Below, piece by piece: positions 16,134 to 41,356 of a DNA stretch of 64,000 bases; positions within the stretch are counted from its first letter, which is position 1, and every line of letters begins with the position of its first letter. The stretch is from an uncultured Clostridia bacterium (lineage in GTDB: Bacteria; Bacillota; Clostridia; TANB77; CAG-508): assembly GCA_947623595.1 (NCBI GenBank), contig CANQHC010000006.1, positions 1,005 to 65,004 of the forward strand, written 5' to 3'. Below the pieces are notes generated by a model. It was not told the origin of the DNA. It made no database searches and saw nothing but the letters and a program-made list of their open reading frames with translations. The position numbers were made by a program, and so were the translations under genes.

Positions 16134-16374
16134 TCAAAACTTTTAAAATTTCACTTTTATTAGTAAGATTTCATAAATATTTTATCTATATATAAATATA
16201 AAATATTTTTCATCTTTCTTATATGCTAACTTTTAAAAGTTTCTTCCTCTCTTTCTTTATAAATTTACGGACTTTTTCCTGTTCCGTGTACAGCTATTCT
16301 TTATTCTCCGGGTTCTTTCCCGATAATTTTCTTTAGATTCATTTGAATTTTTTATTGTATAAGCTAAAAAATCC

Positions 16375-17362: not shown

Positions 17363-17995
17363 TTATTTACTTTTTACACTTGATTTTAGTTTTAAGATTG
17401 CACCTTTTGCTCCTGGTACACTACCTTTTACTAAAATAGCATTTTTGTCTAAATCTACTTTTACAACTTCTAAGTTTTGAATTGTAACTGTTTCATTTCC
17501 CATATGTCCTGGTAATTTTTTACCTTTAAATACTCTACCTGGTGTAGATGTTGGACCCATTGAACCTGGTCTTCTATGATACATAGAACCATGTCCCATA
17601 GGTCCTCTTGATTGACCATGACGTTTTATAACACCTTGGAATCCTTTTCCTTTTGAAGTACCTTGAATATCTAATTTATCTCCTACTGCAAAAGTATCTG
17701 CTTTTATCTCATCACCTACTTTTACATTTTCAATAGAATCTACTCTAAATTCTCTTAAATGTTTTTTAGGTGTTAATTTAACTTTTGTATAATGTCCTTT
17801 TACTGGTTTGTTTACTTTATGTTCTTTAACATCTCCAAACCCTAATTGAATACCATTGTATCCATCTTTTTCAGCTGTTTTTACTTGTACTACTGTACAA
17901 GGACCAGCTTCAATTACTGTTACTGGAATTACTTTTCCTTGTTCATCAAATATTTGTGTCATTCCAACTTTTTTTCCAATTAATCCTTTATTCAT
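17363..17995 (-). CDS. rplC: 50S ribosomal protein L3
   Basis: ..[29 protein letters not shown].. ..[12 protein letters not shown]... Confidence 0.95.
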
Positions 17996-18021
17996 TTTCT
18001 TTCCTCCTATACGTTTCCGTA

Positions 18022-18240
18022 TAAGTTATCCGTAACTGGCTAACTTAGCTTCGCATTGCTTGCGCTCTGCTTCATCTAAGTTATCTGTAACTGGCTAACT
18101 TAGCTTCGCATTGCTTGCGCTCTGCTTCGCCTAAGTTATCTGTAACTGGCTAACTTAGCTTCGCATTGCTTGCGCTCTGCTTCGCCTAAGTTATCCGTAG
18201 CTCGCTTTGCTTCGCACGGCTAACTTAACTATTGGCTACC
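18022..18240. repeat. 55-bp tandem repeat: 3 near-identical copies plus 1 degenerate copy in the rpsJ-rplC spacer
   Basis: Units start at 18022, 18077, 18132 and 18187. Unit: TAAGTTATC[C/T]GTAACTGGCTAACTTAGCTTCGCATTGCTTGCGCTCTGCTTC[A/G][T/C]C. Clearly richer in G+C and CpG than the flanks. Confidence 0.95.
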
Positions 18241-18289
18241 TTGTAATTTGTTTGTGTAATGGTAGCTTGGTTTTTAAGGACTTTATTCC

Positions 18290-18622
18290 TTATAGTTTGA
18301 TTTCTATGTCAACACCAGCTGGTAAATCTATTTTCATAAGATTATCTACTGTTTTTTGTGTTGGATAAAGAATATCAATTACTCTTTTATGAGTTCTCAT
18401 TTCAAATTGTTCTCTTGAATCTTTGTGCATGTGTGGAGAACGTAAGATTGTAATAATCTCCTTTTCTGTTGGTAGTGGAATAGGACCTGATACTTTAGCT
18501 CCTGTTTTTTTAGCAGTATCTACTATAATTTCAGCAGACTGTTCTAAAACAACTGAATCATAAGCTTTAAGTCTTATTCTGATTTTCTCACTTGTTACTG
18601 CATTTTCTTTTTTTGTTGCCAT
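18290..18622 (-). CDS. rpsJ: 30S ribosomal protein S10
   Basis: ..[40 protein letters not shown].. ..[10 protein letters not shown]; GAAGGAGGG SD. Confidence 0.95.
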
Positions 18623-18877
18623 CTTAAATTTCCCTCCTTCTAATTTTTTCAGGCTTTTTAGCCCTTATTTTGGTCGGAAGTTATAACGCACCCTAGTGTT
18701 TCTTTTTTTACCAATATAAAAACCCAAGCTTGCATGATAATTCTTGGGATAAGTGCTTTATTTTTAAACTTACCGCCTGGTCTAAGCCATAACATACTCC
18801 ATAAGAGTTCCCTCCAAATACTAAAAAATATGTATTTGTAGCCACATCTTACTTCATCGCTAAATACATGCTTAAAT

Positions 18878-18906
18878 ATTATACATTACTATACCAATAA
18901 AGTCAA
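18878..18906 (-). promoter_or_regulatory. Sigma-A-type promoter of the S10 operon
   Basis: Minus strand reads TTGACT-17 nt-TATAAT, about 255 nt upstream of the rpsJ ATG. Confidence 0.7.
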
Positions 18907-18949
18907 CACTTTTTATTGAAAAAGTGTTTCAATCGATATTCGTATCAAT

Positions 18950-18978
18950 TTTACAATATAAGCATTTTATGCTATAAT
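18950..18978 (+). promoter_or_regulatory. Sigma-A-type promoter of the orphan plus-strand gene
   Basis: TTTACA-17 nt-TATAAT, followed by the ACTTGG-CTTA-CCAAGT hairpin and a GAAGGTG SD. Confidence 0.6.
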
Positions 18979-19026
18979 TAAGGTAACTTGGCTTACCAAG
19001 TAATCTTATAGAAGGTGTTGGTGTTA

Positions 19027-19455
19027 GTGTTGAAACGCGAATTTCTAGTGGTTTTCCACTTGAAACAGCCCCATCGTCCGGAGCAATTTGAAAAGCTAAA
19101 AAATGCACTACAAGAAATTAATTTAGTGCACCCCGACGACGCGGTCGGAGCATACATTTCTCGCGTAGGCCAGAGCCGGGACAGGCTCATCTTGAACATT
19201 CCAAATCTCAATAAATCAGTAAAATTTTCCGTTATTGATGATCAAGAGGTCATCGAAAAAAACATTAGGTTTTGCAATGTTGCTGTCTCGCTTCGGAGCT
19301 GCATCGTAATTAACTCTCTTTACAGCGATGAAACAAATAATGGAACTTATGAAACTTTAGACATTCGCTTTTTAGTAGCGAAGAGCGATAAAAGTGAACA
19401 GTTAAAAGTGCTAGATGAGTTCTATGAATCTCTTTTTGACGGAGAGGAGGATTAA
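19027..19455 (+). CDS. Hypothetical protein with acidic C-terminus; compositionally foreign
   Basis: Long open frame (track 19015-19455). Several in-frame GTG/TTG starts occur at 19015-19030; I prefer the GTG at 19027, 9 nt after GAAGGTG. The 5' half is markedly GC/CpG-rich compared with the rest of the window. Own promoter and terminator. No family recognised. Confidence 0.6.
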   Translation: MLKREFLVVFHLKQPHRPEQFEKLKNALQEINLVHPDDAVGAYISRVGQSRDRLILNIPNLNKSVKFSVIDDQEVIEKNIRFCNVAVSLRSCIVINSLYSDETNNGTYETLDIRFLVAKSDKSEQLKVLDEFYESLFDGEED

Positions 19456-24202: not shown

Positions 24203-24377
24203 TTCTGGTTCTCCTTTTGCATTTTGAATAGTAAATTATTGTACTTTTATAAATTATTGTTTCATTTTATACTATTCAAAATGCAATATAAAACATTTAA
24301 TTTCTATTTTATAGGATAACCATTTTTCATTTTTTTAAACATTTGCTAATCATTTGTTATAACTGCATCTACATTTG

Positions 24378-26276
24378 CTATTGATTTGTCATAAATGCAT
24401 CTACATTTGCTCTATATAAATCATATCTTTCCCTTGCTAAAGCATGTAAATATAAATTTCTAATAGCTTTTAGTCTTCTATCTTTATCTGATCCATTTGT
24501 TACATCTGCTACTTTTTCATCTTCCCATGTTATTTCATCCTTTCTCCATACTGAACCTTTAATAATTTGATCCGCTGGATACACAGATGCTGCATTAACC
24601 ATACAGTGATAACATGAAGTAATGTTCTTATTATTTCTTGTTTGTGGATAAAAATACCTATAATTTCCTTCTGAAACACGAACAGTTTGCCTTAAAAAGC
24701 TAATGTTAGAATATGCTTCTAATATATTTAGTTTCTTATTTTCCAATAATTCTGTACAACCTGGTAAATGATATTCTCTTTCTCCTGTATCTGCATTTTC
24801 TGTAATAATATAAATACATTCCTTATTTATATTTTCCTCATTAGAATTATTATTTATTACACAATAATTATTATAATATTTATGTCCAATTGGAATTCCT
24901 TGTAAAAAAGTAAGCATTGATATATTGTTAGTGATTTTATTCCAATCTTCCTCTGTTAACACAGGTAAAGCAAACTCATAATTTACACCTGTATAATCTT
25001 TAAATTCTGAAATAGCTGTTGTTAAATTTGTTTCGATAGACTTACGAATAACTGCTATACGATTTTCATCAAATGCTGATCCAAATAGTAATGGATCATT
25101 TGTATCTGATGGCACAAAAATATCTTCATCTTTTGTATCAGAATAATATTCTATTCTGTCACCATTTTGATTTATAACACAAAATTCTAAAGGATTTCCA
25201 TTTTCATCTATTGCATGACTCTGCTTTATGCCTTTTGTTAAGTCAGCTACTTGCTTACTAAATTTTGCAGCATTATTATAATATTCTAAGGCACTAGTAC
25301 TGTGCAAGTGCCCACCCCATGTTCTTTCCTGTAAATAATCATATATTTGTGTATTAGCGTAAGTATACTTTTTATTAGTAATATATGATTTTCCATAATT
25401 TTGATAAGTAAAATATGGTGATTGTCTAGTGTTACTTTCATTATAACTTGCCGCTTTTTCTTTATCATAATAAATTTTTTGTGCATTATATTCTACATAT
25501 TCATAATCATTTTGGTCATCTTCTAAGAAAGCTAAATGTTCAGTTAATACTTCAGGCTCAATCGTTTCACCATTATATGTTAGAGACCAACTTGATGGTG
25601 GACTTGATTCAAAATCACAATTAAAATGTACTGTGTTAAAATTGATCAAATACCCGGCTAAAGTTTTATAGCCATCACCATCTCCAAAGTCTCCGTATAA
25701 GGTAATTGCATTATCTAATGTATAATTAACTACAAAATCTTTATTTTCATTTTTATAACGACATGAGTAATAAATATATGGTTTTAATCCAAAATCAGTA
25801 GTTGCAATACCTATTCCATTTGTTTCATCTTCCTCTTCTTCTTCTTCTTCAGTTTCGATATCACTTCTTATATTTGGACTTCCATCTTTTATATCAGGTT
25901 TTCCATCTTTTACACTATAAACATTATCATATTTACTATAAATATAATATCCATCATATAATGTAAATACCACTGCTGGTGCATATGCCTGCAACTCTTC
26001 TACTGTTAATCTCTTACTATTACTCAAAGAATTATAAAAAGTCTTTACTGATGCTTCAATATCTCTAATTTTTGAATTGCTGACACTAGAATAACGGTTA
26101 TTTACAGTATTTAATTGGAATGCTTTTATAGCATCATAAGTAGCATCTATAAGTTTGGCGTCATAATCACTTTGCAATTCTATACTTTTCATTTGTGAAT
26201 CAATATAAGAAAACATTGTCATAGCAATTGGCAAAATAATAATGACAAAAATAACTGCAATATGTTGTATTTTCAT
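24378..26276 (-). CDS. Large N-terminally anchored protein of unknown function (last gene of the filament-like locus)
   Basis: 632 aa. N-terminal TM helix MKIQHIAVIFVIIILPIAMTMF, a poly-Glu tract (EEEEEEEDE), and C-terminal Cys motifs (..HLPGC.. ..SCYHC..). No family recognised. Confidence 0.6.
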   Translation of the reverse strand: MKIQHIAVIFVIIILPIAMTMFSYIDSQMKSIELQSDYDAKLIDATYDAIKAFQLNTVNNRYSSVSNSKIRDIEASVKTFYNSLSNSKRLTVEELQAYAPAVVFTLYDGYYIYSKYDNVYSVKDGKPDIKDGSPNIRSDIETEEEEEEEDETNGIGIATTDFGLKPYIYYSCRYKNENKDFVVNYTLDNAITLYGDFGDGDGYKTLAGYLINFNTVHFNCDFESSPPSSWSLTYNGETIEPEVLTEHLAFLEDDQNDYEYVEYNAQKIYYDKEKAASYNESNTRQSPYFTYQNYGKSYITNKKYTYANTQIYDYLQERTWGGHLHSTSALEYYNNAAKFSKQVADLTKGIKQSHAIDENGNPLEFCVINQNGDRIEYYSDTKDEDIFVPSDTNDPLLFGSAFDENRIAVIRKSIETNLTTAISEFKDYTGVNYEFALPVLTEEDWNKITNNISMLTFLQGIPIGHKYYNNYCVINNNSNEENINKECIYIITENADTGEREYHLPGCTELLENKKLNILEAYSNISFLRQTVRVSEGNYRYFYPQTRNNKNITSCYHCMVNAASVYPADQIIKGSVWRKDEITWEDEKVADVTNGSDKDRRLKAIRNLYLHALARERYDLYRANVDAFMTNQ

Positions 26277-29646: not shown

Positions 29647-29778
29647 CTTTTATTTTTATTTCTATATTTCTTTTATTTTATATTTCTTTTGTTTTATATT
29701 TCTTTTATTTCTATATTTCTTTTGTTTTATATTTCTTTTGTTTTATATTTCTTTTATTTTATATTTCCTTTATTTTTA
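29647..29778. repeat. AT-rich 16-17-nt tandem repeat, about 7 copies
   Basis: TATATTTCTTTT[A/G]TTT(C)TA units start at 29663, 29679, 29695, 29712, 29728, 29744 and 29760, lying between two MENAS genes. Confidence 0.9.
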
Positions 29779-40299: not shown

Positions 40300-40392
40300 T
40301 ATTTTCTATTTTTTGAAATTATCTTTAAAATATTTTATTTTTCTATTTTTTTGAAATTATCTTTAAAATATTTTATTTTTCTATTTTTTCTG
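40300..40392. repeat. ~38-bp direct duplication (2 copies plus a partial) spanning the cdaA stop codon
   Basis: GAAATTATCTTTAAAATATTTTATTTTTCTATTTTTT occurs at 40315 and 40353. Each copy contains the reverse complement of ..KIEK-stop. Confidence 0.85.
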
Positions 40393-41356
40393 AATTTTGC
40401 TCATCACTTTTTGTAACTTTATCTTTGCTTTTCTTTTCCTTCTTCTTTAGTTTAGTTTTAACTACTTCTTTTTGTTTGTCACTTCCAAAACGTTTAAGTA
40501 CAATATGTCTCATTAAAATATTTTTTAATGTTTCTTCTTTTAAATCAGCTATTAAAGTTCCATCTTTTGCCACTGATATTTTACCTGTTTCTTCTGAAAT
40601 AATTACAGCAATGGCGTCTGATTCTTTTGATATTCCAATTCCAGCACGATGCCTTGTTCCAATTTCTTTTGCTATATCTTTATCATCTGCTAAAGGTAAA
40701 ATGCAAGCTGCTGCTGCAATTTTATTTTTTGAAATAATGACAGCTCCATCATGTAATGGGGTTTTAGGAGTAAATAAATTTACAATTAGTTGAGGTGACA
40801 CTTCTGCATCTAGCTTAACTCCAGTATCTATAATATCATTAATTTGAATATCTCTTTCTAAGACAATTAAACCACCTGTTTTTGTTTTAGCAAGTTCTGT
40901 TGCTGCAATAACTATTTTATAAATATTCTCCTTTGTTTTAGATTCTAAGTCTTTATCTAATCCAAAATATTTAGTTAATTTATTTGTTCCTAATTGTTCA
41001 AGCATTCGCCTTAATTCTGGTTGAAAAATTACAACTAAGGCAATTACACCATATGGCATAAAAAATGTTAAAATAAAATTTAGAATTCTTAATTGCAAAA
41101 TTTCACTTAAAGCCATTATTACTAAAATAAGAACAATTCCCTTTAATAATTGCCAAGCCCTTGAACTTTTAGCATACATAATAAATTTGTAAAAAATATA
41201 TATTACAATTATTATGTCCAATAATAGAGTTATCAACTTAAATGGATTTTTTGATAACTCTATCATATAATTGGCAAAAGATAAGCCTATTTCATTAATA
41301 CTCAATTTAAAATTTTCAAACATATTAAATTCCATTCCTTTCTTCTTTGCTAACAC
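40373..41356 (-). CDS. cdaA: Membrane-bound diadenylate cyclase CdaA
   Basis: Three N-terminal TM helices followed by a DAC domain ..TGGLIVLERD.. ..PLHDGAVIISKNKIAAAACILPLA.. ..GTRHRAGIGISKESDAIAVIISEETG... Start is uncertain: GTG at 41356, or ATG at 41335 or 41323. Confidence 0.88.
   Translation of the reverse strand: MLAKKKGMEFNMFENFKLSINEIGLSFANYMIELSKNPFKLITLLLDIIIVIYIFYKFIMYAKSSRAWQLLKGIVLILVIMALSEILQLRILNFILTFFMPYGVIALVVIFQPELRRMLEQLGTNKLTKYFGLDKDLESKTKENIYKIVIAATELAKTKTGGLIVLERDIQINDIIDTGVKLDAEVSPQLIVNLFTPKTPLHDGAVIISKNKIAAAACILPLADDKDIAKEIGTRHRAGIGISKESDAIAVIISEETGKISVAKDGTLIADLKEETLKNILMRHIVLKRFGSDKQKEVVKTKLKKKEKKSKDKVTKSDEQNSEKIEK

Follow-up and report, generated by a model that had tools for sequence, protein, structure and literature searches.

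The window analysed here is a 64-kb stretch (contig CANQHC010000006.1) of an uncultured Clostridia bacterium of the CAG-508 lineage, and the feature in question is a tandem array of 55-nt units embedded in its S10 ribosomal protein operon, between rpsJ and rplC. The operon is encoded on the minus strand and continues from rpsJ and rplC to rplD, rplW and rplB. An earlier note on this DNA had described a 55-bp tandem repeat in a 294-nt spacer, and both the repeat and the spacer (17996-18289, minus strand) are confirmed by Tandem Repeats Finder (TRF), a repeat search and the gene coordinates. The RNA sense is the reverse complement of the forward strand, and in it the boxes of the repeat read GCGAAGC rather than GCTTCGC, the non-RNA strand quoted in the note. 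In the direction of transcription, the locus comprises the two genes, three hairpins designated P1, P2 and P3, the repeat units and the Shine-Dalgarno (SD) sequence of rplC:

18290-18622, minus strand: rpsJ, ribosomal protein S10 (110 aa; Pfam PF00338 on an identical product)
18235-18270, minus strand: P1, CCAA-GCUACC-[20-nt loop]-GGUAGC, followed by the invariant CAAUAGU at 18228-18234
18187-18227, minus strand: H0, the canonical P2, UAAGUUA-G-CCGU [GCGAAGCAAAGCGAGCU] ACGG-A-UAACUUA, its arms identical to the invariant P2 arms of 13 related loci
18132-18186, minus strand: unit a, with linker GGCGAAGCAGAGCGCAAGCAAUGCGAAGC (18158-18186) and then a truncated P2 copy, UAAGUUAGCC-AGUUAC-AGAUAACUUA (18132-18157)
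18077-18131, minus strand: unit b, 55/55 identical to unit a
18022-18076, minus strand: unit c, 52/55 identical to units a and b, its linker starting GAUGAAGC; adjoins P3
18008-18023, minus strand: P3, the mini-hairpin UAUACG-GAAA-CGUAUA (-6.1 kcal/mol, z -7.0), whose last A is the first SD base
18003-18008, minus strand: SD of rplC, AGGAGG, read from the sequence and invariant in all leaders
17363-17995, minus strand: rplC, ribosomal protein L3 (210 aa; start codon 17993-17995)

TRF reports a period of 55 nt with 3.4 copies and 95% matches (18022-18206), and the repeat search places the copy starts at 18022, 18077 and 18132, giving an array of 3 x 55 = 165 nt (18022-18186) with pairwise unit identities of 52/55, 52/55 and 55/55. 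The three near-identical units (52-55/55) counted in the earlier note thus stand; its decayed fourth copy at 18187 does not, as it agrees with the units at 28/55 positions in register and corresponds to the ancestral P2. A 38-nt core, with up to 3 mismatches, is matched three times, versus 0 matches expected in shuffles. The description of the array as GC- and CpG-rich in an AT-rich, CpG-poor genome holds as well: its GC content is 46.7% compared to 29.0% in the window, its CpG observed/expected ratio is 1.13 compared to 0.40, and only 0.016% of segments of equal size are as GC-rich. The inverted repeat TAAGTTA..TAACTTA occurs in all units, as claimed, whereas the two boxes ascribed to each unit are incomplete in the one nearest rplC (unit c), where the second box is degenerate and reads GCTTCATC. 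Six of the seven GCGAAGC words in the 64 kb fall within the rpsJ-rplC spacer; as DNA, d(GCGAAGC) is a notably stable mini-hairpin. The sense strand of the spacer contains no open reading frame (ORF) of at least 30 aa. Every reading frame of each unit holds stops, as judged by eye rather than computed, and the 55-nt period shifts the frame.

Each unit is composed of a purine-rich 29-nt linker and a 26-nt truncated P2, UAAGUUAGCC-AGUUAC-(A/G)GAUAACUUA. The linker GGCGAAGCAGAGCGCAAGCAAUGCGAAGC comprises three GCG(C)AAGC sub-repeats of ~10 nt (GCGAAGCAGA, GCGCAAGCAAU and GCGAAGCUAAG), and its predicted hairpin, GC-[GAA/GAA]-GCA-[GA/AA]-GC-GCAA, folds at -8.3 kcal/mol with a GCAA tetraloop and accounts for 90% of the ensemble. 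Its first 14 nt equal the H0 loop at 13 positions, the common string being GCGAAGCA[A/G]AGCG. The two middle hairpin copies carry ACAG in place of ACGG, with a C.A mismatch; they lack the inner CCGU/ACGG pairs and fold weakly (-2.7 kcal/mol). In unit c, next to P3, the hairpin retains both ACGG and the canonical 3' arm ACGGAUAACUUA, with a predicted fold of -6.4 kcal/mol (z -2.8); the outer stem is kept in 4/4 window copies. The array lies exactly between P2 and P3, whereby the motif is split into two locally intact halves. In a modelled fold, it can be read as four tandem modules, each consisting of a P2-like hairpin and a GNRA-capped hairpin, the first and last of which would give the canonical 5' and 3' contexts.

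The motif interrupted by the array is a conserved leader. A scan of metagenome contigs used the junction CCAATAGTTAAGTTA(N)CCGT, which as an exact 19-mer takes in the 5' arm of P2, and 13 of its 15 matches are rpsJ-rplC spacers of more distant relatives (L3 identity 73-83%). All 13 loci display the arrangement CCA(A/U)GCUG-[P1]-CAGCCAAUAGU-UAAGUUAGCCGU-[variable 10-20-nt loop]-ACGGAUAACUUA-U(R)CGGU(S)AAACGUAUA-GGAGG-AUG, the core of which is invariant outside the variable loops. The elements follow one another as P1, CAAUAGU, P2 (UAAGUUAGCCGU..loop..ACGGAUAACUUA), P3 with a GUGAAA or GUCAAA loop, and AGGAGG, and all of them are present in the window; there, as in the 13 related loci, P1-P2-P3 terminates at the rplC SD on the coding strand. 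The fold and covariation analysis proposed in the earlier note gives the clearest result for P1, which is kept in all relatives, in long and short forms of the spacer alike: in a hand-made alignment, 3/6 basal pairs show compensatory changes, 96.7% of cells are paired and 0/500 shuffles reach the score. H0 folds at -14.2 kcal/mol (z -3.3) with a pair probability of 0.92 in the whole spacer, and by hand comparison its loop GCGAAGCAAAGCGAGCU has 11/17 positions in common with UCGAACGAACGUGAGUU, the P2 loop of the related contig L046. In relatives, P3 reads UAU(R)CG-GU(S)AAA-CGUAUA, with one pair changing from G-U to A-U. As predicted hairpins, P2 and P3 are supported by sequence conservation and thermodynamics.

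Covariance models recover both halves of the split motif. The full-leader model (R1) yields two matches in the window, at 18164-18270 (P1 and H0, 58.7 bits) and 17993-18118 (the last hairpin, P3 and the SD, 42.8 bits), and the P2-P3 model (R2) matches H0 at 18169-18233 with 53.2 bits, the unit c hairpin with P3 and the SD at 18003-18051 with 42.0 bits, and the two middle copies with 16 bits. Pairwise alignment to L046 opens long gaps of 146 and 17 nt after P2. The fold of the spacer as a whole is strong (-87.1 kcal/mol, z -6.15). Its ensemble is mixed, with -81.9 kcal/mol for the minimum free energy (MFE) structure, -75.1 for a cloverleaf that the full canonical P2 closes and -74.7 for a chain of purely local hairpins; a single stable fold for the spacer was set aside, as the ensemble is heterogeneous. 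Against Rfam 15, the spacer leader matches no family at the gathering threshold, and scans of the window spacer and of the canonical leader in E-value mode return noise alone (E 0.38-9). The surveys of ribosomal protein leaders (r-leaders) consulted report an L4 candidate upstream of rplC in Archaeoglobi alone, and in them the S10 r-leader of Firmicutes has no association with rplC (PMC7247131, PMC3616713). No Firmicutes rplC leader was found in the r-leader literature searched. The leader upstream of rplC is conserved yet uncatalogued, standing outside both Rfam and that literature. Its role may be either to bind a ribosomal protein that exerts feedback on rplC-rplD translation or to protect the mRNA downstream.

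The placement of the array within the S10 operon transcript, as the earlier note had it, is consistent with the signals predicted around the spacer, whose interior holds neither a promoter match nor a terminator match. The sole strong minus-strand promoter match within 17800-19100 lies upstream of rpsJ:

18878-18906, minus strand: sigma-70-like promoter match TTGACT-17-TATAAT, 11/12, a consensus match alone

This match is likely the S10-operon promoter, with a 5' untranslated region (UTR) of ~250 nt (18623-18877, minus strand) before rpsJ. A Firmicutes S10 r-leader would be expected in such a 5' UTR, and the one described by Yao et al. in 2007 reportedly sits upstream of rpsJ; an Rfam match is absent from 18623-18877.

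The spacers of related genomes differ from that of the window both in length and in content. The DNA stems from a bacterium of the rabbit gut. By L3 identity, the window is at 88% to Clostridium sp. CAG:508, and its nearest neighbours are gut metagenome-assembled genomes (MAGs) at 91-94%. The eight lineages of closest relatives (L3 87-94%) possess spacers of 80-170 nt with no trace of the repeat, from which P2-P3 is wholly absent, indicating that the module is dispensable. These spacers take the short form CCA(A/U)GC-[hairpin P1]-GCCAAUAGU-UAGGAGG, with L037 and L027 slightly variant at the SD end. The expectation in the earlier note that this spacer is normally very short thus does not apply in the clade, where 80-170 nt with a conserved hairpin is the rule. 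Relative to the short-form spacers, the P2-P3 module is bounded by TA..TA, a feature equally explained by deletion at a microhomology.

Additional variation was observed at this spacer and at others. Among close relatives, a 25-nt tandem duplication (ACAGCATATTA.TTTT.CAATTTAAA) inside the P1 loop distinguishes spacers of 167-170 nt from those of 143 nt (compared in L026, L028, L029-L032, L034 and L035), which is independent evidence of a slippage-prone spacer. In L046 (10400-10520, minus strand) and L037 (2347-2440, plus strand), the rpsJ stop is immediately followed by another, diverged module of the P2/P3 type, whose 5' arm (AUUAAGUUAUA) reaches back over the stop and the final codons of rpsJ. 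A UAU(R)CAAC..GUUG hairpin comes next, and the module has thus been duplicated within one spacer in other lineages too. In L044 (8065-8160, plus strand), a P2/P3-like module, UAAGUUAGACGUU..UUACGAAUAACUUA-UGCAAC..GUUGCA, lies between the end of rplE (an L5-like C-terminus) and the SD of an S14-like gene starting with MAKK; this hairpin is thus not confined to the rplC leader. Among other rabbit-gut strains, several variant alleles occupy the corresponding site, of which only fragments, with loose ends of up to 30 nt, can be read from Logan unitigs: one keeps H0 and carries another linker, likewise with GCGAAGC ends, and a further one lacks 193 nt. In runs X1-X4 and X17, an 18009/18300 joint leaves out 290 nt, so that the rplC SD comes almost straight after the end of rpsJ. 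The relative that carries it is abundant in the same rabbit samples (depth 34-40 in X1-X4), and spacer length thus ranges from ~10 to 294 nt within one gut community. A contig of the L3 variant P0040 (L036:1-223) has GC-rich, coding-like sequence in the place of rpsJ, with a hairpin and CCAAUAAC still before the SD, and is probably a chimeric assembly or a rearrangement.

Taken together, a two-hairpin module of the conserved structured rplC leader has probably been amplified in tandem (3 x 55 nt) to give the array, recently and in this lineage only. Judging from its arms, the supposed decayed copy is the original P2, and the three units are its derived local amplification. The start of the linker matches the P2 loop and the units carry a truncated P2, so that the material derives from the leader itself and not from foreign DNA, and the GC richness of the array is explained in the same way. 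The identity of units a and b at 55/55 positions argues for recency. The units would have arisen by slipped-strand mispairing or unequal recombination between short direct repeats (the arms and the GCGAAGC boxes), which strong hairpins in the vicinity would also promote. The weak middle hairpin copies and the absence of P2-P3 from the eight closest lineages likewise speak for this reading. The variable spacers of relatives, with their P1-loop duplication, extra modules and variant alleles, were counted in favour of a slippage-prone site. Once formed, the array would be transcribed as part of the S10-operon mRNA, starting at the promoter match (18878-18906), and would fold as a chain of hairpins, in which P1-P2 at the 5' side and the P2-like hairpin, P3 and SD next to the rplC start stay locally intact. 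Since both halves of the motif would remain intact, the array could be tolerated, and on this fold model its effect on the role of the leader is probably small.

Several observations weigh against a recent local amplification of an established leader. In the L3 tree, the window is nested among lineages that lack P2-P3, with the long-form taxa more distant, which implies either several independent and precise losses or a re-acquisition; no recombination signal was seen in the flanking coding DNA, which most resembles that of the short-form relatives. Within the sample, chosen by an exact 19-mer, both P2 and P3 are invariant, and their pairing therefore receives no support from covariation. The high GC and CpG contents and the identity of two units could also be compatible with selection or concerted evolution. 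The statement that the unit occupies a single locus covers the 64-kb window and near-identical k-mers, and diverged copies elsewhere are possible. Finally, none of the public RNA runs searched holds the organism, the best word share being 0.09.

Two other explanations concern the origin of the array. Its copy number might be a product of the assembler, by which a repeat was collapsed or expanded, since short-read metagenome assemblies often mis-size tandem repeats and units a and b are identical. The authenticity check, raised in the earlier note, makes this extremely improbable: the 294-nt spacer is identical in two ENA assemblies from different samples, at least three further similar contigs exist, and in another rabbit-gut study, of 2022, Logan unitigs agree with both array junctions at 0 mismatches (17943-18061 and 18166-18338). 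Array-specific 31-mers occur in rabbit-gut metagenomes only. The word depths in the unitigs are 10.7 for the single-copy junction of units a and b, 18.6 for two-copy words and ~30 summed for three-copy words, with flanks at 11-14, and this ratio of ~1:2:3 is in keeping with three units at one locus and no further copies in that metagenome. By arithmetic, the unit-specific variants that flank the two identical units are ~121 nt apart and could be spanned by a 150-nt read. Alternatively, the unit might be a mobile or dispersed repeat inserted into the operon, of the type of repetitive extragenic palindromic (REP) sequences, bacterial interspersed mosaic elements (BIMEs) or miniature inverted-repeat transposable elements (MITEs), a family that the earlier note had suggested. 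The unit is palindromic and GC-rich in an AT-rich genome, the P2-P3 module has its TA..TA borders against the short-form relatives, and paralogous modules occur in other ribosomal protein spacers of relatives. Yet no other copy was found in the window by exact and 3-mismatch patterns, by a fuzzy search allowing 5-6 substitutions or by a covariance-model scan with the filter off, the last of which returned a chance match of 22 bits inside a coding region (41220-41280). One linker pattern (GCGAAGCNNNGCGCAAGCNNNGCGAAGC) gave 20 matches, none of them relevant, in 185,579 GTDB species-representative genomes, where it fell either in coding sequence, mostly of GC-rich genomes, or in a Prochloron repeat, and three patterns gave 0 matches in IMG/VR viral contigs. 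The k-mer depth of the unit, a measure that detects near-identical copies only, is that of a single three-copy locus. The P2-P3 module ends, AAGUUAGCCGU.. and ..GAAACGUAUA, form no terminal inverted repeats, the known hairpin copies are all located in ribosomal protein operon spacers, and parts of the unit match the leader's own sequence. An insertion of a mobile or dispersed repeat is thus largely refuted and retains only a very small probability. As to the Prochloron matches, the pattern hit five loci (L003-L006, L009) in the Prochloron sp. MAG OZ240666.1 that share GCGAAGC(TTT/AAA)GCGCAAGCTTTGCGAAGC, several of them flanked by short tandem repeats (e.g. GGTAACT, CCCTTGGCG-rich); they look like that genome's own dispersed repeat family, unrelated to the window. 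A clustered regularly interspaced short palindromic repeat (CRISPR) array, already dismissed in the earlier note, was rejected on the grounds that the three 29-nt intervening segments are identical or 2 nt apart; no search for Cas genes was made.

The other alternatives assign a function to the array itself, as did two suggestions of the earlier note, an RNA-protein binding array and a processing site. It may be a multi-site operator, in which the outer P2 stem (UAAGUUA-G-CC / GG-A-UAACUUA, with a G.A mismatch) is recognized by a trans-acting protein, e.g. the operon ribosomal proteins L4 or L3, and selection for four sites would have changed how sensitively or cooperatively feedback acts on rplC and the genes that follow it. 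Across taxa of 73-83% L3 identity, neither the P2 arms nor P3 vary while the loops do so freely, which is typical of sequence-specific recognition; the outer stem and UAU(R)C recur in the paralogous modules that come after rpsJ (L046, L037) or precede the S14 gene (L044), the outer stem persists in every copy in the window, and the identity of units a and b could mean selection or homogenisation. These arguments are countered by the middle copies, with their lost inner pairs, weak folds and 16-bit matches, and by the closest relatives, which manage without P2-P3. Mimicry of rRNA, assessed by local alignment to E. coli 16S and 23S rRNA, was not significant: the best match, GCGGUGAAA..CGUA.AG to 16S 688-705 in the 690-loop region, scores 20 versus a shuffle mean of 16.3 (sd 2.0, max 24; z ~1.9). 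A multi-site operator is regarded as unlikely. A broader form of the proposal, by which the P2 and GNRA-capped-hairpin module is a putative operator for an S10-cluster ribosomal protein or another RNA-binding factor, copied to several intercistronic sites (after rpsJ, before rplC, before the S14 gene) in CAG-508-like Clostridia, with the window as a natural four-site array retuning rplC-rplD feedback, is quite doubtful. A similarly low probability is given to the array as an element of mRNA stability or processing, acting either as a roadblock to a 5'-3' exonuclease of the RNase J type after cleavage between rpsJ and rplC, where more hairpins would give stronger protection, or as an endonuclease site that uncouples S10 from L3-L4. 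5' stem-loops and strong SD sequences stabilise Firmicute mRNAs; here the spacer is intercistronic, strongly structured and placed directly 5' of AGGAGG, and relatives have comparable modules of hairpin and SD in further spacers between cistrons. A generic roadblock, however, should permit drift with compensatory change, whereas the arms are invariant, and close relatives lack the module.

On its own, the array is a curiosity: a gene that is essential and highly expressed can tolerate a strongly structured expansion of 165 nt a few nucleotides before its start. The main yield is the sequence-invariant, three-element rplC leader in a family of uncultured gut Clostridia, of which natural variants are at hand in present, deleted, duplicated and four-fold amplified forms. 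Should the leader be a feedback operator, these variants form an allelic series relating the number and integrity of operators to the balance of ribosomal proteins; should it not be, the case illustrates how RNA structure between cistrons is built up and worn away by slippage. In the rather improbable event that the putative multi-site operator is real, it would constitute a new class of r-leader with a naturally variable number of sites.

Other features of the window lie outside the spacer. Within the operon, the rplW-rplB spacer (16134-16374, minus strand) is unusually long at 241 nt, compared to 98-224 nt in relatives, and may be a further structured leader or a variable insertion site; L036 and L060 have a 145-aa ORF without a Pfam match directly after rplW. 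Between spoVG and the rpsJ promoter match lies a 146-aa ORF (19015-19455, plus strand) with parts at 43-45% GC and no Pfam match, and in relatives the same place is occupied by a gene of 127-144 aa, likewise without Pfam match. The sole Rfam match in the window at the gathering threshold is a group II intron catalytic domain (RF00029) at 62832-62950 on the minus strand (59.2 bits, E 4e-9), near which a CpG-rich spot is located at ~62440-62680, one of few others in the window. TRF reports further tandem repeats at 29654-29796 (a 16-nt unit x 8.8, TTTTATTTTATATTTC, 89% matches), 40302-40394 (38 nt x 2.4, 96%) and 24339-24425 (32 nt x 2.3, 90%).

Among known systems, the ribosomal protein leaders, such as the L4-responsive S10 leader of E. 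coli, the Firmicutes S10 r-leader and the Archaeoglobi L4 candidate, resemble the leader of the window as conserved structured RNAs just 5' of a ribosomal protein SD in the S10 cluster (PMC7247131, PMC3616713). They also have in common a small hairpin adjoining the SD, an invariant core and variable loops. The window leader differs from them in its position between rpsJ and rplC rather than upstream of rpsJ, in belonging to no Rfam 15 family, in its non-significant rRNA mimicry and in being dispensable in close relatives. To our knowledge, no r-leader with a tandemly amplified internal module has been described. CRISPR arrays share with the array of the window the alternation of a palindromic element, here of 26 nt, with segments of 29 nt; their period is usually longer than 55 nt, and the near-identical intervening segments and the location within a ribosomal protein operon transcript set the window array apart. 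REP, BIME and MITE sequences are likewise imperfect palindromes, intercistronic and GC-rich relative to the genome, yet the array differs by its single locus, its lack of terminal inverted repeats and its local origin in the leader. It shares more with the intergenic minisatellites, or variable-number tandem repeats (VNTRs), of bacteria: the 55-nt units are arranged head-to-tail at 95-100% identity, the close relatives have 0 units, the array is lineage-specific with variant alleles in related strains, and short direct repeats and hairpins that would favour slippage are present. In comparison to such repeats, the array of the window stands inside a highly expressed essential operon and a conserved RNA motif, and its unit is a structured two-hairpin module.

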